Below, piece after piece: positions 35,174-59,439 of a stretch of 64,000 bases of DNA. Source of the DNA: Microthyrium microscopicum (lineage: Eukaryota); NCBI GenBank assembly GCA_010405405.1, contig MU004231.1, forward strand, positions 3,218,401 through 3,282,400, written 5' to 3'. The translations under genes were made by a program, and so were the position numbers. The notes beneath the pieces are model-generated. The model did no database searches. It saw only the letters and a program-made list of their open reading frames with translations, and was not told where the DNA came from. The first letter of the stretch is position 1, and each line of letters starts with the position of its first letter.

Positions 35174-36568
35174 ATGTCGACGCTTTCAGCTGCTCTGCAG
35201 GCTTCTCAGACAATTCCAGGTAGTACACAGCTCCAATGGTCCCTCCTCCAGAACCTCAGAGTGGTTAACAGAATTATAGGTCGGAACGAGCTTCTTGGAT
35301 TACCAACAGAGTTGCGCTTTGAGATCTTCTCTTATTGCAGTAGAAAGGCTCTGACAGCGCTCCGAGAATGCTGTACTCAGCTTCATTCTGAAACTGAGAT
35401 AGAGCTGAAGTCCAACAAGCGCCTCTTCTGCATCAATAGCGCTTCGCTGGATTCGTATCTGTTTAGGCACGAGGAGTACCGTACCTACTGGAGAGATGAG
35501 TTCTTGGCGGGGCATGTGCCATTTCCAGTATATGCGCCTTATCATGACATCCCGCCATTACTCAAGAATTATGGCACAGTAGACCTGGACGCAGGACGAA
35601 AGATGAAACATTTGCTGTACGTAGCACAATGTGAGCCTACGCGGAACCAGCAAGCACATTCAGGCGTTTGTCCTCATTCTATACAGATACTATACGTTAT
35701 CTGTAAACGATTGTTTCCCAACTTGGAGCAAGTGAAGGTCATCACAATACAACCAGATCCTCGCTTTGCACCGCCCGACTTCTCTCCATTTCTCAAAGAC
35801 TTGGTAAAGGACCGGCGCAACAATCTCATTCAAGAACATTTTTCCGCTGCTAATATCTGCAAAGTCGGCGACAATTTCTTCGCCCAAGATCTATTGCCAG
35901 TTTCCAATGATTACAATACAAGGCAAGATTATATCTACAAACGATGTCATTTAGCCTGCGCAGCGCTTAAACATGTTCAAAAGAGCCCTTGCACCAATCT
36001 TCTTGTTTTTTCTGAACTGTCAGAAGCTATGTCAGATGCCATGAGGCTCCCTGTAGCAAGTAGTCCACTAACGTCAATCTCTGGCTGGGTGCGCGCGGAA
36101 CGCCTGAGAAGACATCGGCTGGGAGCTGTAAAGCACCAGCAAAATCTGATCAATAATCGGCGACGAGATCAACTAGCAAAAGGAAAGCCAGGTCTCATGA
36201 CGCTCTCAACGAAGAAGCTCAAGAAGCTTGAGATGGATACAACATTCGCCGAAAGATGGGCCGATTCATTTCGTCAACAAGTCAAGAGTTTGGTGGATTC
36301 GGGTCCCGAATTTGAAGACAAATTGCGTAAGCAACTTGCCGACAATATCAACCACATGGTGATTAGGACCGCGGGGCCTTTGCCATATCACCATTACCTG
36401 CCAGGGGGAAAAGTAAAACCATCTGCCGCGACTAATCTGATTAATATGGTCCTGCGAAGAGATTTGAACCTTGGAAAGATTACAGGTTCGCCTGGGGACT
36501 ATGGATGGTCACAAACAGAACAACGGTGGTTCATGAGGCAGCACGTTCAATCAGTGAACAAGGCTTAG
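35174..36568 (+). CDS. Hypothetical F-box-like protein, tandem paralog A (intact)
   Basis: LLGLPTELRFEIFSYC..LTALR. It is collinear with the next gene (IN.AS...YL, LYVIC.RLFP.LEQ, AER.RR.R, Q..KGKPG.M, PEF..KL.KQL.D). Confidence 0.8.
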   Translation: MSTLSAALQASQTIPGSTQLQWSLLQNLRVVNRIIGRNELLGLPTELRFEIFSYCSRKALTALRECCTQLHSETEIELKSNKRLFCINSASLDSYLFRHEEYRTYWRDEFLAGHVPFPVYAPYHDIPPLLKNYGTVDLDAGRKMKHLLYVAQCEPTRNQQAHSGVCPHSIQILYVICKRLFPNLEQVKVITIQPDPRFAPPDFSPFLKDLVKDRRNNLIQEHFSAANICKVGDNFFAQDLLPVSNDYNTRQDYIYKRCHLACAALKHVQKSPCTNLLVFSELSEAMSDAMRLPVASSPLTSISGWVRAERLRRHRLGAVKHQQNLINNRRRDQLAKGKPGLMTLSTKKLKKLEMDTTFAERWADSFRQQVKSLVDSGPEFEDKLRKQLADNINHMVIRTAGPLPYHHYLPGGKVKPSAATNLINMVLRRDLNLGKITGSPGDYGWSQTEQRWFMRQHVQSVNKA

Positions 36569-37763
36569 ATAAACATGATACTAGTAGGCTGGATTATTGC
36601 CGTTTCTCAAGCCATGTCTTCACAGGTCGGCTGAAGAAGGCGAATTTACACACGAACGCATTCAACACCCAGCAGTTCGAGACCATGACATGTCTGGAGG
36701 TTGGAGCGTTTGGACCGCATAGCTACTTTGTTGAAGATGGTAACAGGTCAGACAGGCTCACTCGCTAAGTGTTGTAGAGACCTCTTACCTCCCATTAATA
36801 CTACCTGTTAGCACTGTCTCATGAACAGTCAGTTCCATGGATGAAATGAGTCGTACGATCTCATCAATGTCATCTGATATAGTGACTTTCAAAGAGCATG
36901 GTGAGACTTCATATCATACTTCATAGCTCGCTCAATCTCCTTCGCCCTCGTTGGAAGATAAACAAGTAGGTTACACGATGTAGCTGACAGCAGCTAGCCA
37001 AACTGATCGTGATACTGTCCAGGCCTTTATCTTGCCAAAGGCTTCGAACGTGACCCTATCAATTAAGTAGCCACTACGGTACTATATTCGTCCTCCTTGT
37101 GTAAAGTTGGATCGTACGTATAAGCCTCGCAGCTGTAAAGATGCTTGCATAACGGACAAGGGACTTTCACCTTGCATCTTGCGCATACATAACCGGACGA
37201 ACGACAAGATAACTGGCACGCCCACAGCAGCTACCTTCTATAACTAGGTGCTCTTTTAAGCATTGAACGCTCAAACGCCCATGTCACTTTCCAATGCGCT
37301 GTGATATCACGTACCTTCTGTTTGAGGAATGCCTTTGAATTGCTACTTGGAGACATTGGTTATCAAGTGCAGCGATCGACTTAGCGAAGCGGATCTTCGA
37401 GCTATCAATCTGAGTTGATGGGACCGCGCCATTTATTCTGTCGCCTAGTTGTACGATCAGCGCAAGACGAATACTCAGCGAACATTGAGCCAGTCAACAT
37501 TGGTATCACTTTCGAACATCATAAACTTCACTTCCTTCACAAGTGGAGCATAAAACCTCTGCTCCTCTGCACCCTCAAGAGCCCCAATCTTCCACTTACT
37601 TATCCTCAAAATCTCCTGCTTCGGCCTCTTACTCCAGCTTTATACAAGAATACCTTACCAACACGATTCCTTCTTCACCTATCTCTAGCCCTATCTTCTT
37701 TCCGTGGTCTTCTTAGGAACCACCGTTCTCATATTGGCTTTGTGCCTCATATCAAGGGATCAA

Positions 37764-38990
37764 ATGAACGAACAAATGGCTGGATCGCAGGATTCAAACG
37801 ACTCCCCAGATTCAAGTATAGTCGCCGTCGCCACACATACCAATCCGAGCAGATCGCTAATGTTAGATCTAGCCTGTCATGAGTCGTTTCGACTCGCGGA
37901 TCTTCCCCTCGAGCTGCGCTGGGAAATCTACTCATATTGCGACAATAACACTCTGGCGGCTCTTCGAAACTCAAGCCGGCAGCTTCGTATGGAGACTGAA
38001 GAAGAAGCTTTCACTAAGCGACTCGTTGTCATCAACACTGCCTCTATCGAGGCTTATCTGCAGGAAAAGCTACATGGGAGAATTGCCTTTTGTGACCAGC
38101 AAGACTACAGAACTTTCGACAGATACAAAGCCTTGGACCCTGGACCAGAGATGACTGACAAAAACATTGCCGTCGACCTTGCTATCGCCCGTAAAGTCAA
38201 GTCACTGCTGTATCTGTCTCCAATATGTTTTCATTGTCGTCCCGGGGATATTTGCGCGGCATGTTTCACGCGATTGTACGTCATTTGCCGAAGACTATTT
38301 CCGAGCCTGGAGCAATTCAGAGTCATCGCCATATATGAGTCTTATGGGATGAGCTACGTCCACAACCGACTTCCACGGTCGCTTCCAGGCTTACCCGAAA
38401 GAATGGCTAAACACTACCATCATCCAGCAAAGATGACTTTCACTCAATACGAGTATTCTCCTGATATTATACGCAAGATTGGGGACAAATACTGTCTTCA
38501 AGAAACATTGTCAGATGAAGAAGAACGTGCGATTCGAGACTATACTCTTCAATTCGGATTTCTTGCGAAAGAAGCTCGGCAAGCGTATGCTGGGAAAGAG
38601 CTATACCTCAGATCCCAGGTTGCGAGGTCTAAAATTGATTTCAACTTGACCGTCAGAACGATATCTGATGCGATTAAATTGCCACATCTTGCCAGACCTT
38701 GGGCATTAATTGCGACATCGATTGAGGCCGAACGTGTGAGACGCTGGCGGACAGTGAGGCACGCAGACAAGGCGAAAGAAGTCGAAGAGAACCGACAGAA
38801 GCAGTTACAGAAAGGAAAGCCCGGAATTATGAAAATGTCCATGATGAAAATCCAAAAGCTCCTCCATGAACGAGAGAGCGCAGAGCAGCATGCTCGTAGC
38901 CTTCGTCACGCGATCAAAAAAGAAATGCACTCTGACCCTGAGTTTCAAGAAAAGTTGCAAAAACAGTTGGATGATGCTTCTACTTATGGT
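37764..38990 (+). pseudogene. F-box-like tandem paralog B, 5' part; interrupted by the 20-kb element
   Basis: LADLPLELRWEIYSYC. Similarity to paralog A stops at ..KQLDDASTYG, exactly where the AT-rich block starts. Confidence 0.85.
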
Positions 38991-40399
38991 CTAGATTTAT
39001 CTTACTTAGTTAGACTAGCAGCAAAATTATGGCGTTTACTAGCGTATATAAGGATATACTCTAGCTAATTAGAGCTTATTCTACTCTCTCTAACTTTTTG
39101 CTATATAGTCTAAGAGACTCTTGTTTTATTTGTTAATATTTTAGCTTAACTTTTTAGCTTAATCTAAATATAATGGCGTCTTTTATAAAATAAGTATATA
39201 AATCTTAAAATTAGTTAAATTTAAGTTGTATAGAAGAAACTACGCTTTTAAATAAATATATTTTTAAGTTATCTATGCTTCTAGTTATTTTAGTAATATA
39301 ATTCCTATATGACTAAAAAAATTGCTAGCTTAGTTAACTTTTGCCCTTTTTTGCTTATTATTAACTATATAATAACGATATGATTTGATTACTTTAAAAT
39401 ATTACGTAGTGCTTTATAATTAGCTATTCTATTATCTTATATATTTATTTTTATTATAAAATAGTATAGTTATAGATTCCTATTTATCTTTTAGTTAATT
39501 GTATATTTAGTTAGACTAGGCCTTTTTTTTGCTAAGACTACTTGCTATAATCTATTCTGCTTACGTAAGTATCCTTGTAAGTTTTTATAAGTCTTTATAA
39601 GTCCTTAAATAGCCTATATTTATCCTTTATTACTCTTTTTAACTTTATTAGTATTCTTAGTAGTTATTTTTATACCTTTAGTAGTATATATAGCTTATAT
39701 TAGTATCCTTGCGTAATCTTTATAGTTCCTTACTTGTCCTTTGAATTAATTTAATAGCTTTAGTAATGTAGTAGCTTTAGTAAAGGGTTTATTTTAGTAT
39801 TCTAGTATTTTTATTGCGTTAGTATTTAGATAGCTTTAGTATTTTAATGCTAAGTAATTATATAAGAGTATTAGTAATATCTTTACTAGTCTTAGTATTA
39901 CTTTATTTAGTTAAAGAGGTTACTATAGTAATTTTATTATAGCTAAGAAATCTTATAAGTTTAAAGGTATAGCTCTTATTATCTTTACTTTATCTTTTAG
40001 ACTTAGTATTAGTATTCTTTATGGCTTTAGTGTCTTTAGTATCTTTAGTGTCTCTAATATCTCTAGTATCTTTAGTATCTTTAGTATCTTTAGTTTCTCT
40101 AGGTATCTAGCTTATATAAGCATCTCTATATATCTTAGTATAATCCTTATTTACTCTTAGTAGCTTATAGTAGCCCTTTTTGATTAGTAGGTATAATATA
40201 TAAGTTAGTAATTATTATTATTAAATATTAATTATTATAAATATATACCTTATTATTAATGCTAACCTTATTATTATAGTATTATAGGCTAGATAAAGAA
40301 TAAGTAAAATAATTACTAGTAATCTATAAAACTAAAACTAAGACTAAGACTACTATAATCTTAGTACTTATAATTACTATAATAGGACTAGCCTAATTA

Positions 40400-42700
40400 C
40401 CTACTCTTATAATTGCCTAAACCTTATCTTCTTTAGAAATCTAAGAGGTTACTTAAAGCTATACGTACTGCTTTATAACTAGGATTAGTTAATGCTATTT
40501 ACGCCCTTATATAATTTATTTAAATCTAGCTATTAGCTAAAATATAAGAGTATATATTATAGTTATGCTTATAGAAGTTAACTAGCTATAACCCTTATCC
40601 TAGATAGGTTAGGGCCTTAAGGTTTCTAATATATAAGAGCTATAATATCTTGCTTATTACTTATACTAGATAGAGTAAGAGTTTAATACTATATAACTTT
40701 TCTATATTAATAGAAAAGATTACTTTATAGCTAATTCCTATAAACTAATTAGGGGATAAATAATTTAATAGTATCTTAGCTATCTTTAGGTCTAAGCCTA
40801 TTATTGTTTATAGCGAGACAATAACCTAGTTAAAGGATATTGCTATTAATATTATGTTTAGTTAGTATACCTATATATTAATTTTACTAGAGACTACGTT
40901 TAGTAGGCTCTTTTGTAGTATGTTAAGCAATTTTATCTTTTAGAATAGGATTAGAATAGTTGCTATTAATAAATGCTACTTAGTTAAATAATAGTAGGAT
41001 TTTAGGTCTTAGTTTGCTATAATTTATAAGCTTTATATAATACTATACTAGGATATTATATAGTTTAGTTATACTAGCACCTTAAGTTTACTTATATAAT
41101 AGTTTATTCTTTATTATAGTAGATTCTAAGAAGAGGGACTATATAAATAATAAACTATTATTATATACTCCTTTATTAACCATTAGGATGTTATAATCTA
41201 GTTTAAGCCTATACTTAAGTAAAGGTTAGTATCTTTTAATAAACTCTATTAGATCTTAGATGCTATAGTTAACTCTAAGGCTAGGAAGGCTACTCTTAAG
41301 TTAATTAAAAAGACTATTATATATATTAATAGTAGATTAAAGATCTATACAATGTTAAAATACCTTTAGGCTACTTTAGTTAGTTTAACTAAGAACTTTC
41401 TAGAGGACTAGTAGTATACTTACTTTAATAAGGATAGCGTACGTTATATCTATAACCTTATTTAAGAAATTACTTTTATTATCCCTAGCTATAATAAGAT
41501 AGTTTGGTACTAAGAATTTAAGCTTCTAGGTTCACCTTGTTAAATTATAATTATAACTATAAGCCTAGGACTTAGTATTAATATATTAGATATTATATTA
41601 ATTATTATTTAGAGGTTCTTAATACTATATAGTTTTATAGATCTATGGTAGCGTATAGGTTATAGTAGGCGTAGTTATAGGTTATTTAGTATTGCTATAG
41701 TATTTCTTTCGTATTAAATATTTAATATATTTAGATAAGAATAACTTAATCTATAGAAAGGTATTTAGGTAAGTTTACTAACTATTTAATTTATCTAGGT
41801 TATATTTTCTTTATATAGGACTTAAAATTATACGCTACTTTAATATTAATAACTTTGTATTTAGGATAGGGCTAGTTTAAGTATATTGTAGCTTAAATTG
41901 CTATTTAATAATAGTAATATTAAAAGTAAAGCTAGTACTGCCTTATAAGTATTTACTATTATATTTATTACTTCTTAAGTATTAGTTATAGATATATAAG
42001 AAGCTAATATATTACTAGATAGTATACCTAGTTTAATTCCTCTATTTTAGTTTAGAGTTAAGGTTAAAACTTATAGTAGAGTCTTACGTAAATAGTTTAT
42101 TATTATAAATTATTTAGACTATTTTTAAGAAGCTATCCTCTATGAGCTAGATAAATTCCTGCCCTAGATAATAGATTATAATTCTATACTAATTTTAAGG
42201 TATTATAATAAATACTATCTAGATAAGTTTTGTAAATTAGTTTAGTTAGTGTTTTTACTACGTAAGTAGGCTTTAAATAAGAATAGTTGTAAGGCTATTA
42301 TAAGAACGTAATTATAGGTCTAGTCCTTAGTAGTAAAAGAAGCTATGTGTCTAGAGGATAATTATAAGAGTAAATATTCTTAAGGTAAAGACTAGTTGCT
42401 AGATAATGATTTGATTAGGTAGCTAGCTTATCTTTACGCTACTAAATTTCCTTTTAATACTTAGTATTTTACTTAAGATAAATTATATATACGTATTTTT
42501 AATTTAGTTAATTAGACTAATACTATTATGTTAAAGGGAAAGCTATTATTTATCCTTTAAAAGCTAGAAACTATTATTAAGTAGTTATATAAGGATGCCT
42601 ATAAGGCTAATTATTTAGTACGCCTTATGGCTAAGGAAGTAAAGCTCTTAAAGAAAATATAAGTTATAGCGTTATAGTTAGAGTCTTAGTTATAGTTACT
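40400..42700 (+). pseudogene. RIP-destroyed RecQ-like SF2 (DExH) helicase; boundaries approximate
   Basis: Literal translation, with de-RIP reading after '=': LLITYTR*SKSLI = LLIARTGWGKSLI (motif I, ~40650-40690). KITL*LIPIN*LGDK* is motif Ia. VAINKCYLVK**=VAIDECHLVKQW (motif II, ~40960). C*IIIITISLGLSINILDI = CRIMVAT.SLGLGIDIPDI (motif V, ~41540-41595). DLW*RIGYSRR = DLWQRIGRGGR (motif VI, ~41640-41675). YYNKYY = CCNKCH (Zn region, ~42200). Confidence 0.85.
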
Positions 42701-43869
42701 TATATCGTCTTAAACTAGTAATCTTTAGCGCTAGGTTCTTAAGAAACTAATAGATAATGAGTTAATATAAGAAAGGGCTTATAGAGTATAAGAGGAAGAT
42801 AAAAGGGTTTATTTGTTTATAAGTTAGCTAATTAGATATATGTTTATCCTTATTAGTTTATTTAGAGGTTCTATGTTAATAAATATTCTAACCTTACTAT
42901 TTACTAAGTATTAGTAGGATATTACGAATTTAGATAATAGTAATATCCTAGATAAATATAAGGGATTTATAAATACTAATTCTAAAGATAATAAAGAAGA
43001 TATAGACGATAATTTATTTAATTAGCTAATACCTATATTAAATAAAGATAGTATTACTCTAGTTACTACTCCTTATACTTATTACTTAACTTATACTTAA
43101 TAAAAGAGTTATTTGCTAAGCTAAGACTTATTAAGCTAGTTAATACTACGTTATTATTAGATTAGGGCTAGTATAAAATAGTCCTTACCTATAATCTTAG
43201 AGAGAAATAGTTTAACTACTACTATTAGGAGGACTATAAGAAAGAGTATAAAAGAGTATTCTTCTTAACTAACGAGAAGAGGATTAAAGATAAGTAAGAA
43301 GATGTTGCGTTTAATATTAGAGTAGGTTAGACCTAGTGTATAATTCTAAATATTTAGTTTTTTAACTATTTTATCTACTTAGGTATTATAAGGAACTATA
43401 TAGGATTATATAGGATTCTAAGGAGTAGGTAGGTATAGTTATATAAGCACTATATTTTATATTTTTAGTTTAGAGGTTTATAAATATTAGTATTTAGAGT
43501 TCTTATCTATTATAGGCGTTATGTTCTTCTATATATATTTATAGTATATTATATTTATTAGTTTGTTATAACTACTTTGTTTATTTATTATTATTATAGT
43601 ATCTTTAGTAAATAGATATCTAAGCATTAAGCCCTATTACGAAGCCTATATATTATAATATACATTATAAAGGAGGCTCTTTATAAGTATAATAATAAGG
43701 ATGAATTTACTAGTCTATATAAGATTAGTAAGTATATTAAAGTATTCCTAAGACGTAATAGGATATTACTATAAGTATTAGTAAAACTTAGATAGTGTCC
43801 TAACTTAGATCTATTTAAATATAGTATATATATTTCTAGGTAGGAAAGCTATTTTAGCGCTTAACTTCT

Positions 43870-43995
43870 CTATATTGCTTAGTATTATAATGATGCTTAG
43901 CTTCTTTACGTTGCTTAGTATTGCTATAACGCTTAGCTTCTTTACGTTACTTAGTATTACTATAGCGCTTTGCCTCTTTATGTTACTTAGTGTTG
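43870..43995. repeat. 36-bp tandem repeat (~3.5 copies) inside the element
   Basis: Units resemble TTGCTTAGTATTGCTATAACGCTTAGCTTCTTTACG. The minus strand reads RKEAKR-like 12-aa units. Confidence 0.75.
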
Positions 43996-46900
43996 CTTAC
44001 TTACTAGTTTCATTAAGTAATAGAAACTAGACACTATAATAAGAACTAGATATTAGAAAATCTAATAGTAAGTAGACTTTACTTAGCTAAGGCTTATACT
44101 TTAATCCCTTATACGTAAAGCTAATATGGCTAATTGTTAATAGCTTAAGTACTTTACTTTTTAACGTTATAGGTAAAGACGTAAAGTTAAGTAGGTTTAT
44201 TAGAAATTAGTATTAAGAAATATTTAGTATCTTGCTATTTAACTACTTAGAAGGTATAGTTTGTGTACTAGCCTTTAAGAGCCTATTAATTATTCTTAGT
44301 TATGAAAATAGTAATTAAGTTATATTAAGAGATATAGCTATAGTTAAGGTACTACCTAAAGAATAATACAGTTTAGAGTATAGAGTTAATATCACTAGTA
44401 GTATTAAATCTACGCTAAACTTTAGTAGATTAATTATTAGGCATATTAACATTATTAGGCGCGCTAACATTACTATATATTAGAAAGTACTAGTAGTAGG
44501 TATTTTTATTATCTATTTTATTCTTTAGCAGTATACCTTACTCTTTAATAAAGACTTTCTTACGAATTATTATAATATTAATAAACTTTTATAGGACTCT
44601 ATATTATTAATTTAGTAGGATAGAGCAATTATAGTTCTATAAAGCTAGTTTATGTTCTAGCGTTAGCCTAAAGTAGATAATAAACTTAGTTACTCTAATA
44701 CTTATTAAGGAATATTAGAAGGAATATAATATAGATAGCTAAATAGCTTATTGCCTTCTACTATTAGTAACTTGTTATATTATAGTAGTTCTTTATTAAG
44801 AACCTTTCTTATGTATATTTTCTTAATATTGTTACTACTTTACTAAATCTTTATTATAAGGATAGAGAGGAGTTTTATTAGACTCTCTTTAAAGGTAGCA
44901 TATCTATTTAGATTAAAATTATTAAGTTATATAGGAATAGTATATATTATTAGCGTAAAGAGTTAGTCTTTAAGCTAGTAGTTATTTAAAGTTATAAAGA
45001 TTATAATTTTGATATAGTGTTTAGTCTAAAAGATAATACTATATAAATCTATATTAGCGTTTTATAACGTATTAATAAATAAAATATTATATAATACGTC
45101 TATTTTACTAGTCTAGGTAGAGGCTAGGTTAAGTAAGGATAATATAGTAAGCCTAGGTATTCCTTTTTAGGTAATTAATACGTTAGTAGAATATATCTAA
45201 TAGATTTTTTTACTAGATATAATATACTCTTTACTCGTTACTATTCTAGTTATACTTTATAACTAAATAGTATATATATAATAAGTATAAACTATATAGT
45301 AACTTTTGCTATATATTTAACTATTTATAACCCTTTATAATTAATTAAGGCTACTAATATTATAATCTTATTATCTTAATTAGGTAGTAGTAAGAACTTT
45401 ATAAAGTGCTACCTATTATGTCTACTACCTAAATGGTATATCCCTTATTATACTAGATATATTCTTTTCTCTTCTTTATCTTTATATACCTTTAGGTCTT
45501 CTTTTAAGCAGTTTTCTTTATACTTAACTAGATTACTTTTAAGAAGGTATAGCCTTAGGTCTTTGTTATACCTTTTTAATATAACTTTTAGGCTATTAAT
45601 ACTTTTTATATACTAACTAATTCTATTCTATTTCTTTTATTAGATAAGGGCCTTATAGAAATATAATAAGCTAATTAGGTATTACTAAATTAAGTAATTA
45701 TAACTATTTAATAGCTAATACTCTTAGTTAGACTAAGTATTTAAAATAGTAAGACTATTATATTATAGTCTTTTTAAAGCCTTTATGCCCTTTAGCTTTT
45801 AAACTTTAACTTCTTAACTTTATAACTTTATATACTTACGTCTTTTGCTATCTTTAAAAGAAAGATGTACTCTTAATACTATCCTATACTTAACGTATAT
45901 ATTATCTTTACTTATTAGCTATCTAATAGTCTCTTGCTATCCTAGCTTATTAAGGAGGTAAAGTTAATTCCTTATAGCGTACTACGCTAAAAAGGTAAAT
46001 ATATTTATCTAGAGAGTAGAATTTCTAGTTATATTATAAAGCGTTATAACTTTAATAATTTATAAGTTCTAGTATATTGCTTATAGATATTAGTAGTAAT
46101 AATTATAGTTAGTAAGTTAAGTTTAATGCTTGCTAGGCTACTTACTAAGCTTGTTTAGCTATACTTATTAAGTAAGAAGAGAGTCCCCTTTTTGTTTTAG
46201 CTTCTCTTATATTTAGCTCGCCTAAGCTATCTCTTTCCTTAAGTTTGCCTTTTAATTTTAGTAATAATAAGCTAATAGACGATAATAACGATAATAATAA
46301 TAAAGACGAAGAAGACGATAAGACTTTCATTAATCCTAATCTTCTCTCTCCTCTCGCTCTTATCCTTACTAAGGCTAAGTATAACGTGCTTATATAAAAA
46401 TTTAACTTTAGCTTAATAGCTAGAATTAACCTTAGCTAGCTACGTTTTATAGCGATAAAGCTAAGTCTAGACGTAAAGCGCTCTACTATACTTAATAAAT
46501 AATAGTCTTAGACTACTAAGAAGTAGGACGTCTTAATATTTTAAAAAAAAAAAACTATATAGTAATATTAGCTATATAATAAAGATGACTTTTAGTAAAC
46601 GCATATTAGATATTGCTACGTATTTAGCGTATATTAAGTATAGGTAAGAATATTAGTAGTTTATATAGAAAGTAAAGAATACATAGAAGAATTTTAGAAG
46701 TTATTATACTTATTATGTTATATTTCTTAAAGACTATACCTTTAGAGATAATTATTATAAATTTAAAGGTAAAGTTATAGAGTATAAGACTTTAGGTAAA
46801 TTATTTAGTTTATAAACTAGTTAAAAGATAGAGGTTTAGGAAGTAGTAGTTTAGAGTAGGTAATTAGTATAGAATAGCGTATTAACGTATACTTCTCATA

Positions 46901-49900
46901 ATGATAGTAATTACTTAAGTATTTAGTGTCTTATGCTTCCTTTACGATTATATTATTTAATTAAGTTCTATAAGAAGTAAGTAGGAGTTGCTTTGAAAGC
47001 TATGAGTATCTTATAAGATATATATTATAAGGATTATAGGCATGTTTAGTATTCTTTAATATCTTTATAATTATATCGTTTAATTAGGTTCTATAAGAAG
47101 TAAGTAGGAGTTGCTCTAAAAGCTACAAGTATTCTATAAGGCGTGCGTTATAAGCGTTATAAGTATATAGTAATATATTATAGTTGTTTAAATTAATTAT
47201 ATTGGGTGTATTAATAATATTATTCTTATCGTCTTATTATCTATTATATGCGTTATAATATAAACGTTAATATTAGTAAATAGTTAGTTATAAATAGGTA
47301 AAGTTAGAAAATATACAATGTCTATATAGCTAATATATGCTTTACAGAACTATAGGATATGCTAGCCTAAAATAAGTAGTTTAGTATTTTATTAGACTTT
47401 ATAACTAGTTAGGTATTAGAAGGGTATATTTAGTAGGATATAGGATATCTAGAGATAATTAGGTAATGTTAAGAATCCTAAAGGATGTTAATTTTAGGAC
47501 TAGCTATTATTACTATACTCTTATAATTAAAATAATATAAACTTATAAGCTAATAATCTAATTTATTAACTTAATTTGCTATACTATCTTTTACCTTATT
47601 CTTTTAATTTAATAGTTATCCTAGTATACTAAGCTATTATATTGCATTATCTTTAGTTTGTCTATTTATCTTGCTACTAAAACCTATATTCTTATTAATT
47701 ATAGCTCTACTAATACTAGAACGCTATCTGCTTTATTCTTTAAAGGTATTTAAAGAATAATAATAGATAGCTTATATTCTTTTTTAGCTTTAGTACTAGC
47801 TTTTAATAGGCTATATTAAATAGAAACTACCTTTACTATTATACTTACTAATGTACGTATATATTAGCCTTTATTATATATATTTAGGCTATGCTATTAA
47901 ACAAAAGGATAGGAACGTTAAATTATTAAGGGATAGTTATTAGTTTAATTAATAGAGAAACTAAAAAGGTAACTTAATAGTAAAAGCGTAAGGTTATAGT
48001 AAGTATTATTACTCTTAATATAGTAGCGAGTAATAGCTAAATTAGTATAAATATATATAGTATATAGTTTAACGCTAGAGGGTAATTTACTATATTATAT
48101 CTATATAGTAATATTTTAGCTATACTTAGCTAGTAATGATTAGTTCTACTATTTAGTAATAATAGTAGGTATAAATATTTAGGCTAAAAAAATATATATT
48201 ATTATTAATAAATAAGATAGCTTAGAATAATATAAGGCTAAGAAATAGGTAGAATAGTTTAGTAATAATGGTAGGTATAAATATCTAGGCTAAAAGAATA
48301 TATATTATTACTAATAAATAAGATAGCTTAGAATAATATAAGGCTAAGAGATAGGTAGAATAAGATAAGTTTATATCTTATAAGTATTTATAATAAGTAT
48401 TAAAATATAAATATTATAATCCTTTAAGCACTTTATAAAGGCTTAATTGAGGTATGTACTCTTATTGCTAAACTATAGTATACGAACTTTATAATTAAAC
48501 TAGACTATTATAATTCTTAAGGAGTAGAAGGGCTAGACTATATAGTTTTTAAGGAGAGGAAGGGCTAGACTATGTAGTTCTTAAGGAGTAGAAGGATCTT
48601 TAGTAAAAGATGCTAATATTAACTTAGGTTATTAGGTTATTATTAGTAACATTGACTTTAAAGTCTATAACTAAATATTCTTTAGGATAATAGTAAATAT
48701 TTATTATGCGTAGCTAGTAAATATTTATTAGACTATAAATACTTTATAGTATAATTGTTAGGTTCTAAACGTAGTAGAGTCTATAAATATATAGTGCTAT
48801 AGAGTTTTTGTAGATATTAATATATATTAATTAAATATTATTACTATATTTAGTATTTAAATGTTATAGTATCTTTAGATAGCTTTATTAGATAACTTTT
48901 AAGCTATATAGGACCTAAGTAGCTACTTATACTAGAGACTTATAAGTTTAAGGCCTTCTACTTAATTAGGATTATAAAAGTAAAGTTCTTATATTTATTA
49001 ATTAGAGTTACGCCTTTTTTAATAAGGTTCTAGGGTTAGGATAAAGTAATTATATAATTAGCAAAATATATTAATTAATATTAAGTTAGTAGGTAGATAT
49101 CTACTTAGAATAAAGCTAAAATTATTTTAGCTTATACTTATTGCTCTTAAGTCTTATCTACTAGTATTATATTTATCTATATAGGTTATTTTTAATAGGC
49201 TATAGGAATAACGTATCTTTTTATAAAATATTCTAGTAATAAATAGTTTTGTCTTTAGAGTATAAAAGGAGATATTTACCGTTAGGATAAAATATTAGTA
49301 TATAAATCTAGTTATTATAGCTAATAAGTATTTTAATTAGTGTTTCTCTACTATCCTAAAGCTTAATAAGCTTATTATAACTAATAGTAAGAATTTAGGT
49401 AAGCTAACTATATAAGGTTATAAGAATTAGGCTTAAGGTAGTAAATAGTAGTAGATATTAGTAGTTAGTAAAGTTTAGAATATAGAGAGTTAAGTAACTT
49501 AGAGATTTTGCTATAAAATATTAGAGATTATAGTTAGATTATAATAATATAAGTATACTTACTCTGCCTTGCTTTACTTATACGTACCTTACTTTGCCTA
49601 AATATAGCTAAATGCTTTATAATTAATCTTTTTAGGGTTAGTCTATATTAAACGTTGTTTACTAAGATTATAGATACTTAAAGTTTAATTATTAGCTTTT
49701 TATAAATTCTACTTAAGGGATTATTAGCCTATAATAAGTAGGTATAGAATATAGCCTAAAGACGCTATATATTCTAAGTAAGGCCTTTCTATTTATATTA
49801 AGATAGCTATATATTATCTACTAATAAAATAAAGAGTTATAAGTAATTTAGTAAGCTATTACTAGTTTATATACTTAATTATATACTAAGTAGCTATCTA

Positions 49901-51417
49901 CTAGATAAGGTTACTTTATAAGTAGTACTTAGTTTATATTAATAACTATATAAGTTTATAATATTAAAGAAAAGGTTAAGTCTAAATAGTTTCTTAAATA
50001 TGGCATTAAGATGCCTAGGCTACTTATTTATAATTAATAGGCTATATATATATTATCTAATAAAAATTAGAAGATATTATATAGATTACTATAATATAGT
50101 TCTTAAGCTCTCTATTAGTTAAAATATAAAGGTTAGTTGCTAAATATTAACGTAAGATAATAGAGTAGTATTATCTTAAGTCGCTATAAAGAAGTAAAGA
50201 TATTAATTAGATTAAGTAGATAGGTCTTAATATAATAAGTAAAGAATGCATCTATAAGATGAACTTAATAGTTTAATAATAGGAAGTAAAGAAAATATAA
50301 GTTAGATTAAGTTAATGTAATTTATACCTTAATTGCTATATATTTAGTAGATATTTAAAATAGAGTATTTTTTAGAGGTATAAACTAATAGGATAACTAA
50401 CTATATATAGGTATAATATAAGTATACTTACTTATCCTATTGTATTCCTATCTATATTATAGCTAATTATTATTTAAAGTTTACTTATACTAGTTTATAT
50501 GCTACTACTATTTAGGATTATATTTTATTTATATATTTCTTAAATAATATAATCTTATACTATATATATATACTTTAGTATAGAGATTTAGTTTGACTTA
50601 TATATCTTAATTATTAACCTATACTATAATATACTACTATTATTTACCTTATTGCTACTCTACTTATTTATCTAATAGCTTATTTTAAATATAACGCTAT
50701 CTAATTATTATTCTAAGTAGTTAAATGTATACTATAAAACTATACTAGAATATACTAATTAAAGCTTAATTTTCTATTGCTCTATTTATCTATTGCGCTA
50801 ACTTAAAGTAATATCTATAATATTATTCTAAGTAAGGAAGATTAATACTATATACGTTAAGCTATACTAATAGTGTAAAAGAATAATATAAGGAAGATAA
50901 GTTAATATTAATATTAATATAAACTCTTATATTTAAGATACTAGTCCTATTAACTAAGTTTATAAGATCTTACCTATTACTATAAGCCTAGAAGGAAGTA
51001 CTTATTTATTATGTCTACTTTTAATATTATAACGGAAGGTTAAAGGCTTGCTTCTAATTTTAATTATCTTATAATAACTTTTTTATAATAAATAGCTAGT
51101 AGTTATACTTATATACTATCTTCTTATCTAAAGCTAAATAAGGCATATAGTAGTAGGTACTTAATGCTAACTACTTTGTTTTATACTTCTTTATAAGTTA
51201 GATATAGGAATAAGTTTGCTAAATTAATAGGAAGGAGAGGAAGAGAAGGGGGTTATACTCTAAGTATTATAAGAGACTAGATTAATATTTAGTTTTATAA
51301 TATAAGCTTTAAGAACAATCGTAGCTACTAAATGTAATAGATACATTAAGCTAATTTAGTAGTTGCCTAATACTAATATAATTAACTAATTAATACTTCT
51401 AGTAGCTTCTTTCTTAT

Positions 51418-51720
51418 TTATAATAGCTATATTTAGATAGGCTATAACTAAAGCTATTATAGTTGCTAATGTAAGTACCTTTTCTATAATAGCTATACTT
51501 AGATAGGCTATAACTAAAGCTATTATAGTTGCTAGTGTAAGTACCTTCTTTATAATAGCTATACTTAGATAGGCTATAATTAAAGCTATTATAGTTGCTA
51601 GTATAAGTATCTTCTCTATAATAGCTATATCTAGATAGGTTATAACTAAAGCTATTATAGTTGCTAATATAAGTACCTTCTTTATAATAGTCGTACCTAG
51701 ATAGGCTATAATAAAAGCTA
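51418..51720. repeat. 66-bp tandem repeat (~4.6 copies) inside the element
   Basis: The unit starts TAATAG at 51421, 51487, 51553, 51619 and 51685. Confidence 0.9.
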
Positions 51721-51852
51721 TAATAAAGGTATTACTAAAAGTAGTAAAGTAAGCTAGCTTACCTTAAGGGTATTAATCTTAAGTACTAGGAGCTATAGAG
51801 GAGTACGCATAATATTATAGTAAGCGCTTCTAAACTTATATAGGTTTCTATA

Positions 51853-52085
51853 CTATTAATTTAGTAGGATAAAGTAATTATAGTTCTATTAAGTTAGTTT
51901 ATGCTCTAGCGTTAGCCTAAAGTAGGTAATAGACTCTATGCTATTAGTTTAGTAGGATAGAGTAATTATAGTTCTATAGAGCTTATTTATACTCTAGCGT
52001 TAGCCTAAAGTAGGTAGTAAACTCTATGCTATTAATTTAGTAAGATAGAGTAATTATAGTTCTATAGAGCTTATTTATGCTTTAG
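51853..52085. repeat. 88-bp tandem repeat (~2.7 copies), with a further copy at ~44603-44685
   Basis: CTATTA(A/G)TTTAGTA..TATAGTTCTAT..CTAGCGTTAGCCTAAAGTAG starts at 51853, 51941 and 52029 (last copy partial) and recurs at 44603. Confidence 0.85.
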
Positions 52086-55000
52086 TAAAGGCGCTATAAG
52101 TAGATAGTATAAAGGAAAAAGAAGAAGAGAAAGATAAATAAAGGAAGAAAGATATTTATATTCTATAGACCTTTAAGAATTTCTCTTTAAGTAAGTTTAA
52201 ACCTAATATTATAAGGGTAGTGTTAATCTTTTTAGGAAGTAGCTAGGATATGCTTATAATAGACTTTTAAGAAATACTACTACTATTAACGTGCTAGGCT
52301 TAGGCTAAAATATTAAGGCTATTAGCGTACTTTAGTACTACTAATATTAAAGCTATTAGCGTATTAAGGTAGTTAAGTCCTTAAACTTAAGGAAGTAATA
52401 GTAGTAAAAGAACTATTAAAGACTAGAAGACTAAATAGTAATTAAAAGTAGTAAGAAGTATTGCTAGCGTACTTTATTAGTAATATTAAGGCTATTAGCG
52501 TATTAGAGTAGTTAAGTCCTTAAACTTAAGGAAGTAATAGTAGTAAAAGAATTATTAAAGACTAGAAGACTAGATAGTAACTAAAAGTAGTAAGAAGTAT
52601 CGTTAGTGTGCTTTACTACTAATGCTAAGGCTATTAGCGTACTAAAGAAGAAGGAAAGAAGAAGAGGAAGAAGAGGGAGGGTTAAAGGATTACTATATTT
52701 TTATTACTAATCTTCTAATTAATTTGGTATGTTCTTTCTAAGGATTACTATACTCTTATTATTAATCTTTTATCTTAATCTAGTAGAGCTAAAGCTTAAG
52801 ATAGTAAAGTACTTAGACTTACTAGGAAAACTTGCTCTTTATATTCTTTTTAAGGATTACTATACCCTTATTATTAATCTTCTAACTAATGTGGTATTCT
52901 TTATACGCTTTATAGCTAGAGTACTTGTATTATAATATTAAATTTATTGTCTTATAGAACGTAAGCTTCTATTTTAACTAGGTAGATATAGTTCTTAAAT
53001 CTATTATTTTAATAGAACGTAAGCTTCTATTTTAACTAGGTATTCTTAAATTTGCTATCTCATAGAATGTAAGCTTTTATTTTAACTAGGAGGTTATTCT
53101 TACTACTAATAATGCTACTTATATAGGTATACTTACTGAAACCTATTAATATCTGTATATCTATATATATTCTAATATATAGGTTATAAATAGAAGGAAT
53201 TACTACTAAGGTATTTAATTAAAATGATAGTAAATATTGCCTACATTACTTATAATAGGGGACATTATCTATCTTAAAAAGCTAAGAGTAGCTACTAGTA
53301 GTAAAAAGACTTGTAAGATAGTATAGTAAGCTTATCCTTCTAAGTAAGATAGCTAATTTAGCGCCTAGATATTCCTAGCGTCTAAAAGGCTTATAGAATC
53401 CCTAATAGTTATTAATACTTATTATAACGTGTAGTATTAAGAAGGTATTCTTTATAACCTACTCTTTTAAGTGAGATAGTTAACTTATACGCTTATTAAT
53501 TCTTATATGCTAGCGTAATTTATAGTACTACTCCTTTTTAATTAAAGCTTTGCTACGATTAGAAGGTATCCTTAGTAAATCTACCCTTCTAAATAAGATA
53601 GCTAATTTAGTATCTAGATGATCTTGCTGCCTAGAAGGCTTATAGAAATTCGTACGTTTATTAATACTTGTATGTTAGTATAACTTATAATACTACTTAT
53701 TCTTAATAGAATCTTGCTACGCTTAAATTTGTACTTATCGTTAAGTTGCTTTAAGACGTATATAAAAAGCGTTCTAGTCTTATAAGGTTACTATTAAATA
53801 TTAAAATCTTACCTCCTAAATAAGGCTTGAATACTTAAACTTTAACTATCTTTTTTTAGTATAGTATAGAGTAAGGACTTTAGTTGGCTAATTATTATTA
53901 TTATTAATAGTAAAAATTATATCTATAATAATATAGAGAGTATTAAGTACTATAAAAGCGTTCTATTTAGGCTTTAGTAGGTTATTAGTGTTATTATTAC
54001 TATTTAGTACTTAAACCCTTCTCTTTTAAATTAGATAAGAGTACTTAAACTTTAACTACTTTTATTTAGTGTAGTATAGAGTTAGTAGGTGTATAGGCTA
54101 TTAATATTATTATTACTATTTAGTACTTAAATCCTTTCTTCTTAGATTAGATAAGAGCTTCTAATATAGGAGTAGTATTTAATAAACTATTTATGAAAGT
54201 AAGTCTTTCTATATATTTTCTTATGTATTCCTACTAATAGAAATAGCTAATATAAATAATTGTAGACAACTTAGGTAATAAAGACTTATAAGCCTTTAAT
54301 GCTACTTACGTAGGTTAACTTCTAGTTAGTTATCTATAGAACCTTATTATTATTAAGATAAGAGTAGCTATTATAGAGAGTATAGTACTTATTATTAATA
54401 ATATATATGTAAAAGAAATCTAGTATATAAGTATACTATTTAAGATTTATAGAACTATTAGTATTAAAGACTAGTGCTTAGGTAATTATTATATAGATAA
54501 ACTTTTAGAACTTTAGAAATTTATAGATAGAGCAATTAGTAAACTAGTTAAGGCTAAGAAGATATAGTGCTAAGTAAAGGATTATAGTATAGTAGTCTTA
54601 CTTAATATTATATATAGTAAAAGAATTAGTAGTAGGGTAGTTAGATATCTAATAAGTACTTAAACTTTAACTACCTTCTTTTAGTATGGTATAGAATAAG
54701 GACTTTAGCGTGTCTTAGTTATAATATATAATACTAAAGGTAAGTAAGTCTAAAGTAATAGGATAGTTATAGTTTATAACTTAGTTAGCGTCATAATACT
54801 TACTACTAATAATATTAAAGATAAGTAAGTTTAGAATAATTAGATAAATGCTAGTATTATAATATAGTTAGTATTATAATACTTACTACTAATTATATTA
54901 AAGGTAAGTAGATTAGGAGGAAGGTAATAAATCTTATTTACTATATTGTTAGTATTGCTATACTTCTTATAAAGGATAATACTTAATATAATAGAAATAC

Positions 55001-55399
55001 GTAAGGAGTTACTTAGATTGGCTTAAAGGTTAGTAAGAGAGACTTAGATATTATATTTAGGCTTAGTAAGACTAAGCTTAAATTGGCTTAAAGGTTAGTA
55101 AGAGAGATTTAGATATTATATTTAGGCTTAATAAGACTAGGCTTAGATTAGCTTATAGGTTAATAAGATAGATAAGATTAGTATTTATTATAGTACTATA
55201 TCTATATTACTTATAGATAAATAAATATTTAAAACTAATTAGATTAGAATAGGTTTATGAATAGGAAGGGTAAAGGTAGTTATAGGTAGGGTAATGTAAG
55301 TTATAAGAGCTCTTTAGAAGTTAAGGTAATCCCTAAGTTGTAAACTAAAAATAACGAATTACTAACTATACTTATTAATACTTAGTTAGCCTAATAAGC

Positions 55400-58300
55400 C
55401 TCTAAATAACTCTTTGCTAATAAGTAAATAGATTTAATAAATTAAGTCCTTTTATTATAATAAATATATATAATTAAATTAACTTAAAAGTTTAGGTTAA
55501 AGTTTATTACTATCTCTAAAGTTACTAAACTTATCTTTCTCTTTAGTATCCTAAGCCTAGGTATAATTTACTACTATACTAGTATTAAACTTTAGCTTAA
55601 CGTCTCTACTACCTTTAAGTATTATATATGCTTAACTTAGAATTACTATATGTTTTTTATTAAACGCTTTTACCTTACTAGTAAGCATTATAGCCCTAAG
55701 TGTTTATATATTTTAAGAGTTGTAATTATTTCCTTTAATTTAGATAGCCTTTAGAAACTAACGCTCTATAAAATTGCCTTAAATTAAAGTATTATATATT
55801 ATATTAATGTTATGCTTTATAGTAGTAATACTTCTTGTACTAGATATATATTTACTAAATGAGCCCTTTAGTATAGCTTTTAACTTTCTGCTATAACTAT
55901 TTATAAGGTATATATAATTAAAAGTAATATGAATATTATGGGTTGAATTCTTTTAGGTCTTTATGTCTAGTTTTGTACTACTATTTATATATTCTAAGCT
56001 TAAATCTATAGCCTTATAACTATGTAGTTTACTAAGCTAGTTAACTAGGCTAGAAGCTAGTATAGCGCGTTATAACTTTAGTTTATTAATAGTATCTAGT
56101 ATATTCTACTTAAGCTATATTATCTTATTACTATAATTATTAGAACTAGACTTATAGAACTAATATATTATAGGATTAATTAGCTAATAAAGTAAACTAA
56201 CGTCTATATATTTAATAGCGTGTTTTAGTATTAATAATAGGTAGATCTTTTATATATATTAATATAATGTCTAGAACTAAATATTAACGTCCTTTAGTAT
56301 TATTGTACTACTTTCTTTGTTTTTATATAAACTAGTCTAACCTTCTACTTAATATATAAGAATTTGAATGTCCTAGATAATTTTAATTACTTAATTTACT
56401 ATTAACGTTTTAATAATGTCTCTTATAATTGTATTATCTACTAGTACGTTAGAAGTTATATTTAGAGGGTAGTGTTTATAATAGCGTAAAGTAAGCTTAA
56501 ATAAGGCTAAGTTTTAAGTATTAAATACTTATTATAGAATAGGTTCTAGCTTATGTAACTAAATAGACTAGCGTATTTTATTCTTTAGATAACCTTAAGT
56601 AGTAATATTATGCTTAATAGAATATAGAGTATGCTTATAGTAGTTAATAGGTCCTTAATAGCTTTTTATAATGTTTTCTCTAAGGCACTTTTAAGTATAG
56701 AACTACCTAATAACTAGATAAAGCTACTCCTTTCTATTAAAGGCTAGAGATAAATAAGATTGCTTAGATTTAATAGCTTAATTATTCTTTATACTAAGTT
56801 AATTTCTATATATAAGAAATAAGTAGTAGGCAAATATATAAGGTTTACTTATTAGGAAGTTAGTTAGCTACTAATATTAGTAGAAGTTTATACTTAATAT
56901 ATCTATTTTATCTAAGCTATATTTTAGAAACTTAAGTACGTTTATAAAGATCTTATAATATATATTATATATACTATTTATAGTACCCTTATTTTTAAAT
57001 ATACTAGCAAGCTATTAATATTTAGTTTTAATTAGGGGAAGTTAATTAAGTTATAATTATACTAATTTCTTCTTCTTATCTTTCTTATTACTAAATATCT
57101 CCTTAAGTTAAGTCTTAAAGGTAACTTAGAGACTTTAATATATTAAGACTTCCTTAATAGCATTAGCTATAGGTTTACTAATTATGTATTCTTTATAAAG
57201 AAGTAAGTTTATAATTAAGCGTAAAGGTAATTTATATATTAGATTATATATATCTTAAGTTAAACTACTAGGTAGATAATAAGAATATCTAACTATAGTA
57301 GCTATAGTTAGATTTTTTATAATATAACTATAGCTAATCCTCTTATTTTGAACTTAATCTTTGTAGTTAAAGTTATTATATATAAGCGCTAACTAAGGAT
57401 TATAGGCTAAGGTAGTAAGCTATTTTTATAAATATATAAGCGTAAGGTTGTAAACTAACTATAAGATACTAAAGGCTACTAAGGATAGTTATAGAATATA
57501 TAGAGATGCTTATATAAGTATTCTAGTGTTTATATTTTGTAGACTATAGATATTAGGAGGCCTATACGATAAGTAAGGGCTTATAAGAAGGAGTAAGGAT
57601 AGATATAAGATATATAGGAATGCTTATATAAGCATTCTAGCGTCTATATTTTGCTAGAGGAGTAATACTAGAAGGGTCTTATAGCGATATATAAGCTATT
57701 ATAAGAGGTAATAAGGGATAATAAGGGTTATAATAATACTAGAATAGGGTATTTTATTAGTAAAAACTTAGTAAGCTAATCTATAACCTATACTATATAG
57801 TAATACTTGTAGTAAATACTAAGTATACTAAAAGTCTATATTACTTTCTTTTTAACGCTAGCGTAATAAAGATATATACTTAGAAGTATTAATATTATAT
57901 TAGACTTTTAGTAATTCTAATGGCTATATACTATAGTAGTAATAAGAAATATAATTAGATTATTAGTATTTATAGACTATATTTTATAAGAACTTTAATA
58001 GCTTCTACTATGCTATATAATATTATAATAAAAAGTAACTTATTAAGGAGCTAGAAGTAATAGACGCTTTATACTTGTTAGAAAGTTAATTAAATTAGGA
58101 TTCTTTTTGTAGTTAAACTGCCTAAACTATAGCGTTCTTAGAAGTTATTATAACTTAGTTATAAAGCTATTAGGATGATAATTACCCTAGATCTAATTTA
58201 TAGAGTAGTAAGTACTAAGTATATTACTTAAAGTAGACTAACGACTCTTAAGAATTAAATAGTATTAGTATTATAGAGTAATAGTATAATGTTAGTTATC

Positions 58301-58500
58301 TATATTTACCTAAGTATCTAAGAATTTAGGAAAAGTTTAAGAGATTAAGTATAAATAAGAGAGTATAGATTCTAGTTTTAACTTAGTAGTAAGTCGTAAG
58401 CTATGCTATTAAGGTAATAGATAGTAATTATTATCTTTATCTTAATTGCTATCCTCTTTTTTTGTACTTAATGCGCTACTAGACTAATAGGGCGTAGAGA
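55400..58500 (-). pseudogene. RIP-destroyed DUF6589/Academ-type transposase; boundaries approximate
   Basis: Minus-strand literal translation, with de-RIP reading after '=': IYNNFNYKD = IYDNFNYKD (~57380). FKNKGT = FENEGT. IYRN*LS = IHGDQLS (~56800). FNRKE*LYLVIR*FY = FDRKEWLHPVIGWFH (~56720). LKHAIKYIDVSLL = LKHAIK.ADVGLL (~56220). L*RAILASSLVN = LQRAILASGLVN. AIDLSLEYIN = AIDLSLEHIN (~55995). Confidence 0.8.
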
Positions 58501-59085
58501 GAAGAATTGGAGGTAGGCTAGAGAGTCTTAGTACTAGTAATGTATTCTTTATTAATAAGAGAGGCGATATAGTAATAGGAGGTAGGGTTGATTGTCTTTT
58601 TAATTAAAACTATTGCTCTAGACGCGTAGGAAGAGTCCTTAGTTATTAGTTTAAGGGCCTAAGTAAACTAATAGAAATAGGGCTATAATAAGGCTAATGC
58701 TTAGACCTAGTATAGCGCTTTTAAGTAAATATAGTAAATTTAAATAATAGAGAAAAATAAGGTAAGTAAAGTGATATAAAAATAAATATAAATATATATA
58801 TAGTTATAGAGATAATATAATTTAAAAAGTGCGTATTCTTTTATATAAAGTTAATAGGGCCCTTACTAAAATAGAATAAGAGTTACTTAGATATAGTAAG
58901 CTGCTTTAAAATTACATATGTCCTAAAATATCTAATTAGCTAAGGGTAAGCTAGGTTCTATATAGAATAGCTAAGGATACTTAGTCAGTAAGAGCTAAAG
59001 GCTCTCTAACTAAGTAGGGAGCTAAAGGCAACTTGTTTTTAAAGTAGCTTGCTACGTCTAAGAAACTAAGATAAGTCTAGATAGT

Positions 59086-59439
59086 GTAGGTCTAAGAATC
59101 TAGTCCTATCATTACCATGACTTGAAACAATATCCTACAGCGAATGACTTGATCACCATGATTTTGGAAGGTAGACCAAATATTATCCTTGACAAGGACA
59201 TAAAACTACAGCAATCCACCATGTTGGCCCAGACACAAAATCTCGATAAAGAGAGAGATATGGGACATGAGTACGATTGGGTAGAGTCAGAAAGTCGATG
59301 GATCTTGAGAATTGAAGTCCGATCCACAGCATCTGGTTATTTTCAGCTCAATGGGGATGGCCCTACCCTCCGTATGAAATGGCATGCTCCCATTCATTCC
59401 GATATCCGCCCTCGAACTTTGGAACGACAAGAAGTGTGA
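59086..59439 (+). pseudogene. F-box-like tandem paralog B, displaced 3' part
   Basis: SYHYHDLKQYPTANDLITMIL...HEYDWVESESRWILR aligns with the paralog A C-terminus PYHHY...AATNLINMVL...DYGWSQTEQRWFMR. It is in frame with the 5' part once the element and one TSD copy are removed. Confidence 0.85.

Follow-up and report, generated by a model that had tools for sequence, protein, structure and literature searches.

Among the described mobile elements closest to the one treated here, DNA transposons of the hAT5 group are reported, in passages of PMC12730594, to generate target-site duplications of 5 bp, those of the CACTA/Mirage/Chapaev/Transib (CMCT) clade 2–5 bp, and Zisupton, Kyakuja and IS3EU 8, 7 and 6 bp, respectively; the same passages present the Kyakuja-Dileera-Zisupton (KDZ) elements as large fungal DNA transposons carrying poorly characterised proteins. 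The Starships, as outlined in parts of PMC11162782, are large elements of fungi that are flanked by short direct repeats, may have inverted repeats, and carry close to one end a gene that reads inward. To these must be added repeat-induced point mutation (RIP), a genome-defence process of fungi. According to sections of PMC2973834, it leaks beyond repeats to the single-copy sequence next to them, over at least 930 bp in Neurospora crassa, and inactivates linked genes in Leptosphaeria maculans. In this account, we describe a locus that can be compared with all of these systems, contained in a 64-kb window (the whole stretch of DNA that was analysed, 64,000 nucleotides of contig MU004231.1 of the fungus Microthyrium microscopicum; all positions are counted from its first letter). 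Within it, a gene here called gene B is divided by an AT-rich block of 20,090 bp, and this arrangement very probably arose by a single insertion of a DNA element into gene B, followed by RIP of the element with leakage into its right flank.

The two parts of gene B are best read against its intact tandem paralog, here called paralog A (35174–36568, forward strand), which has an F-box-like N-terminus and occupies an open reading frame (ORF) of 474 codons, open from 35144. The 5' part of gene B (37764–38990, forward strand) lies in a frame open from 37704, with the start of the source gene model at 37776, and from 37704 to 38990 it comprises 429 native codons, ending GAT GCT TCT ACT TAT GGT. The 3' part (59086–59439, forward strand) holds 117 codons and a terminal TGA at 59437 in the same frame as the 5' part. 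The stretch that separates them, 38991–59085, measures 20,095 nt, or 1 mod 3, in agreement with the frame offset, and position 59086 opens a codon in the frame of ORF 59122–59439 (59122 − 59086 = 36). The TTG at which that ORF opens is an artefact of the ORF caller: read from the junction, its frame translates as VGLRI, a stop, and then SYHYHDLKQY..., terminating at the TGA at 59437.

Both halves are colinear with paralog A, whose residues 50–400 align with residues 64–424 of gene B at 33% identity (E 2e-48) and whose residues 442–471 are matched by the right piece (E 2e-4). When the right piece was compared with all of paralog A, the local score was 60, a value reached by none of 2000 shuffled sequences (mean 30.7, maximum 59). 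In a global alignment of paralog A with the computed join, in which the internal stop was read as X, no gap falls at the junction, where ...QLADNINHMVIRTAGPLPYH of paralog A stands opposite ...QLDDASTYG/VGLRIXSYHYH of gene B (the slash marks the join). The preliminary description of this stretch had proposed that a single host gene is cut in two, that deletion of the intervening DNA restores its frame, and that the right segment is the missing C-terminus and not part of a separate gene copy; the sequence it quoted and each of these points were borne out. For the last of them, a third copy of the gene was sought by tblastn with paralog A and with the left and right pieces of gene B against the whole window, and because only A and B were found, no third copy in the window could own the right piece.

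The block between the two halves stands apart from its surroundings in composition. The window has a GC content of about 47% apart from this one block, 38991–59080, which lies at 20–27% GC with step-like edges (0.46 to 0.23 and back at its borders), is uniform throughout, and averages 23.8% against 0.47 in the flanks; it holds only two standard-code ORFs of at least 60 aa (61 and 68 aa), whereas the flanks hold many. The usual cut-offs for RIP are about 0.89 for TpA/ApT and 1.03 for (CpA+TpG)/(ApC+GpT). The first index is 1.69 in the block against 0.70 and 0.72 in the left and right flanks, and the second is 0.21 against 1.30 and 1.25; relative to expectation, CpA stands at 0.08, TpG at 0.29 and TpA at 1.52. 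These values, which are uniform over all twenty 1-kb bins, form a saturated RIP signature. The mutation is also strand-asymmetric: the forward strand of 38991–59080 retains 57 CpA against 320 TpG, and 19 of the 20 1-kb bins have a positive GC skew, from which it follows that C-to-T changes are more complete on the forward strand.

The borders of the block are also those of an element with terminal inverted repeats. Its left terminal inverted repeat (38991–39015, forward strand, 25 nt) begins with CTAG and the right one (59056–59080, reverse strand) ends with CTAG, and the first 25 nt agree with the reverse complement of the last 25 at 21 positions, a number of identities not reached by any of 200,000 random pairs of 25-mers drawn from the element (maximum 19). 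Directly outside stand the pentamers ATGGT (38986–38990) and ATAGT (59081–59085), the putative copies of a target-site duplication, which agree at 4 of 5 positions at this one locus, with a perfect 4-bp CTAG present as an alternative; the single mismatch is a G-to-A change in TpG context, that is, TpG to TpA, of the RIP type. A self-comparison of the element revealed neither LTR-like terminal direct repeats (LTR, long terminal repeat) nor long inverted ends, and little could be learned from a permissive, RIP-tolerant alignment of the terminal 2.5 kb on each side, which scored 773 where shuffled sequences averaged 695. Within the 64-kb window, the element is single copy, with no match to its sequence elsewhere.

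These borders agree with the boundaries of a single insertion proposed in the preliminary description, in that the inverted repeats adjoin the putative 5-bp duplication; its right copy is ATAGT, not the ATGGT of that text. It had also described both halves of the gene as otherwise open, but the rejoined frame contains, besides the terminal TGA, one in-frame stop, a TAG at 59101–59103 (forward strand), inside the right flank, 15 nt or five codons past the junction; the TAG was visible in the string quoted there and had passed without comment. The term "knockout" is also too strong for the state of the gene, and "fairly recent" lacks support, the element being RIP-saturated and the searches having returned no orthologue for dating. 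The source gene model that starts at 37776, P0003 (430 aa), consists of 405 native codons followed by an element-encoded tail of 25 codons (38991–39068, forward strand) with a stop at 39068 that closes the truncated ORF, and ends ...STYGLDLSYLVRLAAKLWRLLAYIRIYSS; this is a C-terminal truncation and replacement, and gene B now encodes at most a protein shortened by about 117 residues and fitted with a 25-residue foreign tail.

The TAG lies in a short stretch with a RIP-like composition of its own. The first 30 nt of the right flank, which include it, contain 5 TpA, where the background averages 1.49 per 30-nt bin and 1.9% of 1449 bins have at least 5; the TAG itself could derive from a Trp or Gln codon by one RIP-type transition. 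Together with the TpG-to-TpA mismatch in the right pentamer, the TAG looks like the result of RIP leakage out of the element. It would follow that insertion came first, and that RIP of the element and of the border of its right flank came later.

A reading independent of composition is offered by the only recognisable coding sequence in the element, the remnant of a DUF6589 gene at 55647–57359 on the reverse strand. To detect such remnants, the element was translated in six frames with stops written as X, each frame being divided into three overlapping segments, and the resulting 18 read-through pieces were scanned against Pfam. One of the 18 pieces contains PF20231 (DUF6589) with an E value of 7.5e-13 and 48.4 bits, well over the cut-off of 27, and no other Pfam family was found in the remaining 17 at E ≤ 1. 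The region around the remnant (55503–57527) carries 54 stops in 675 codons. A word-based search with the remnant returned nothing, and when it was limited to remnant residues 115–565 it returned one intact relative, P0009 (578 aa, E 2.5e-40), in which a domain scan identifies DUF6589 only and which BLASTP aligns with the remnant over 572 columns (E 2e-53).

Trp, Gln and Arg codons are those that C-to-T and G-to-A transitions turn into stops. Aligned with P0009, 42 stops of the remnant stand opposite a residue, which is Trp (7), Gln (9) or Arg (9) in 25 cases, although these three residues make up 13% of P0009; seven of its nine Trp are stops in the remnant. This placement of the stops is independent evidence that RIP acted on a once-functional gene. 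Attempts to learn more about the protein family gave little: sequence searches of the PDB with the remnant and with P0009 yielded no match (best E 0.34), an AlphaFold model of P0009 built on a two-row alignment was unusable (mean pLDDT 30.1, pTM 0.27), and in the literature searched DUF6589 had one incidental mention with no function given, a search by accession returning nothing relevant. In the Atlas, P0009 has DUF6589 clusters from Basidiomycota, Mucoromycota and Mollusca as its neighbours, and this patchy spread across kingdoms suggests a protein of mobile elements, which we take as a lead only. In one Atlas DUF6589 cluster, 24% of members carry DUF2828 and 21% DUF6589, a minority co-occurrence.

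Regarding its class, LTR retrotransposons also make 5-bp duplications, but the element lacks terminal direct repeats, and no RVT or rve domain occurs in the 18 read-through pieces. Because it combines inverted repeats and a short duplication and is devoid of LTRs, reverse transcriptase and integrase, it is placed among class II-type DNA elements, with the superfamily unassigned, and transposition would be the mechanism by which it entered gene B. It resembles the hAT5 and CMCT elements, as these appear in the passages of PMC12730594, in its terminal inverted repeats and its putative 5-bp duplication, which would be at the upper end of the CMCT range. It differs from them in that no hAT or CMCT transposase domain was detected in it, in its size (20 kb, far larger than typical members), and in its termini, CTAG...CTAG here in place of the CA...TG of the comparison group. 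With the KDZ elements it shares large size, a fungal host and a poorly characterised protein, but the duplications given for Kyakuja (7 bp) and Zisupton (8 bp) in those passages are longer than the 5 bp favoured here, and neither the read-through pieces nor P0009 contain a KDZ match in Pfam.

In its mutated state, the element is like the RIP-degraded AT-rich blocks of Pezizomycotina described for L. maculans and N. crassa in sections of PMC2973834: a block of about 24% GC in a background of 47%, depleted in CpA and enriched in TpA, with former Trp, Gln and Arg codons turned into stops, and with changes of the RIP type, one of them creating a nonsense codon, in the first bases of the flank. Unlike the multi-element isochores treated in those sections, it stands alone, as one element surrounded by housekeeping genes, and unlike the cases of leakage reported there, the apparent leakage here is one-sided and extends over about 30 nt.

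The same insertion could be drawn with another junction, in which the element spans 38995–59076 and the duplication is of a 4-bp palindrome, CTAG, so that the empty site would be 9 nt longer and would read ...TATGGT CTAG ATAGT..., that is, ...TATGGTCTAGATAGT... The CTAG is perfect at both ends, and removal of 20,086 nt keeps the frame as well, the difference being 9 nt. Paralog A is of no help in choosing, because its QLxD-to-YHHY spacing is 14 residues while the joins give 12 (5-bp duplication) or 15 (CTAG), and the alignment leaves the matter undecided. However, the CTAG placement makes the likeness of ATGGT and ATAGT a coincidence, for which we calculate a chance of about 1.6% for at least 4 of 5 matches at a fixed place, and it is for this reason that the 5-bp duplication is favoured; moreover, the inverted repeat itself begins with CTAG, so that these 4 nt call for no further explanation, and similar strings are common in RIP-mutated DNA. 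The longer empty site is for these reasons improbable. Far less credible still is a history in which the halves stem from different gene copies joined by rearrangement or deletion, or in which the block is mitochondrial DNA or an artefact of assembly. What speaks for it is that the C-terminal piece resembles paralog A only modestly; yet the alignment runs seamlessly and in frame across the junction, the rest of the window contains no unpaired half of the gene, and the change in composition coincides exactly with the inverted repeats and the duplication. The flanks on the two sides are parts of one gene, which a chimeric join would not give, and CpA at 0.08 of expectation is no mitochondrial signature. 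A mitochondrial origin of the block was also excluded by direct inspection of its content, with no tRNAs, no rRNA, no Rfam families, and no ORF of at least 80 aa under code 4, the mould-mitochondrial code. The idea that the block is a giant intron was rejected by inspection as well: both candidate acceptors lie upstream of the TAG at 59101, which splicing would therefore leave in place.

Other alternatives keep the division of gene B and change the nature of what divides it. The block might be a nest, a small inverted-repeat element in gene B into which later insertions fell, all of them mutated by RIP together, which is compatible with the split of the gene as described above. For a transposon with terminal inverted repeats, 20 kb is large, recognisable coding remnants cover only about 1.7 kb of it, and a 60-nt inverted motif that lies 1.1 kb from the left end and 1.45–1.6 kb from the right end could mark the ends of an inner element. 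This inner pair, however, has no flanking duplication, self-comparison yields no LTR pairs and no further long inverted pairs, the 18 read-through pieces contain no reverse transcriptase, integrase or second transposase domain, and the composition does not vary along the block, and so we regard a nest as unlikely, though less so than the CTAG junction. A small, RIP-mutated element of the Starship type, moved by a tyrosine recombinase, in place of a transposon of the DDE (Asp-Asp-Glu catalytic triad) kind, would also account for the short direct repeats and the inverted repeats at the ends; its size would be at the low end of these giant fungal elements, and the surviving gene, about 1.7 kb from one end and reading inward, occupies what parts of PMC11162782 describe as the position of the "captain", the DUF3435 recombinase at the 5' end of a Starship. 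What separates the two is the gene itself: DUF3435, the tyrosine recombinase domain of Starships, is absent at E ≤ 1 from the read-through pieces of this heavily degraded sequence, in which DUF6589 is still detectable at 48 bits, and the intact relative P0009 has DUF6589 only. We therefore consider a Starship very unlikely.

Several observations nevertheless weigh against a single insertion followed by RIP and leakage. Taken by itself, the right piece is only weakly similar to paralog A, and it misses the cut-off of 1e-2 in the tblastn search of the whole window. The duplication is imperfect, and the perfect CTAG at both ends allows the other placement; the exact junction, the length of the duplication and the claim of a single event all rest on this one locus. 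Leakage is missing from the left flank, which has 2 TpA in its first 30 nt and intact TpG up to the border. Finally, DUF6589 is a domain without an assigned function, and a recognised transposase domain was sought in the 18 read-through pieces with none found, although heavy RIP could hide a second gene.

Taking these points into account, the insertion of one DNA element remains the account that we favour, and the course of events may be sketched as follows. An element of about 20.1 kb, of class II type and cut-and-paste-like, would have entered gene B in its 3' third by one insertion, after the codon for Gly429 (numbered from 37704) and before the next codon, duplicating the 5-bp target ATGGT. 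It would have carried 25-nt terminal inverted repeats and a DUF6589 gene, the latter probably as a gene of its own. Repeated RIP would have come later, presumably since more than one copy was then present in the genome, with C-to-T and G-to-A changes mostly at CpA and TpG, until the GC content of the element had fallen to 24% and all of its genes were ruined; a spill of about 20–30 nt into the right flank would then have produced both ATAGT and the TAG in the 3' part of gene B.

Some further properties of the two host genes deserve mention. Paralog A scores over the gathering threshold of the Pfam F-box family (E 1.6e-4; 21.9 bits against 20.5), whereas gene B, at 13.8 bits, stays below it, though it aligns with paralog A across the motif. 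A search for proteins homologous to gene B returned only its own model, and a HMMER scan of 1.84 billion representatives with paralog A gave 5 matches and no orthologue, the five being two self models, one repeat protein, and two matches confined to the F-box. Judged by these searches, genes A and B are predicted to be lineage-restricted F-box-like genes. The source model for paralog A, P0004, has only 138 aa, ends early and includes an apparent intron close to the N-terminus, while the ORF itself is uninterrupted over its 474 codons; P0004 is probably wrong. Residues 400–435 of paralog A (window 36341–36448, NHMVIRTAGPLPYHHYL...) span the position equivalent to the insertion site in gene B, and they match a motif of which P0005 contains about 10 copies (E 5.8e-10 over 10 stretches); P0005 is a 623-aa protein of the representatives library that consists almost wholly of 64-aa tandem repeats. 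Neither the left nor the right piece of gene B matches P0005.

Self-comparison of the element also revealed local tandem arrays, with units of 9, 36, 66, 88, 106, 123 and 139 bp. A left subterminal array (40009–40171) contains about 11 copies of the 9-bp unit followed by the 60-nt motif (40110–40171), whose outer 12 nt form a perfect palindrome, and the right subterminal motif (57458–57633) comprises two tandem copies in inverted orientation relative to 40110–40171. The right copies, of about 121 bp each in the region 57458–57716, lie just upstream of the DUF6589 remnant, and the subterminal repeats could be protein-binding or promoter repeats. An internal zone of tandem repeats occupies 51347–52650 (units of 66, 88 and 139 bp), with further arrays up to about 55.2 kb; the central 4 kb (51347–55206) is dense in such repeats, with units of 66, 88, 139, 83 and 65 bp, and one 105-nt unit recurs 7.2 kb away at 44582–44686.

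Around the locus, the flanking ORFs resemble ordinary fungal genes, such as those for isocitrate dehydrogenase, a Na/Ca exchanger, a protein with a fungal-specific transcription factor domain, and 6-phosphogluconolactonase, with further matches to a UBE2O-like E2, galactose-1-phosphate uridylyltransferase, carnosine N-methyltransferase and GDT1, and for this reason the setting is taken to be a housekeeping region of a fungal chromosome. An ORF of 365 aa at 20416–21513 matches DUF7730 below the threshold (E 2.1e-4; 21.1 bits, cut-off 27); its family is uncertain, and it may be a further fungal gene specific to the lineage.

Events of this kind are ordinary fungal genome biology, and the interest of the present case is that it is unusually clean: at one site, the insertion of a transposon can be followed at the level of single bases together with the destruction of the invader by RIP and an apparent spill of RIP that adds a nonsense codon to the host gene. 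The site is also a convenient marker for presence/absence surveys across isolates. What is modestly new, and alone of wider reach, is the occurrence of DUF6589 inside a transposon with defined ends, which turns the role of this family into a concrete hypothesis: DUF6589 might, as a tentative proposal that we hold to be doubtful at present, be the protein that mobilises large eukaryotic DNA transposons of a group not yet described, with inverted repeats of about 25 nt, CTAG termini and 5-bp duplications. If this were true, the locus in M. microscopicum would hold a member of that group that is dead but has both of its ends defined.

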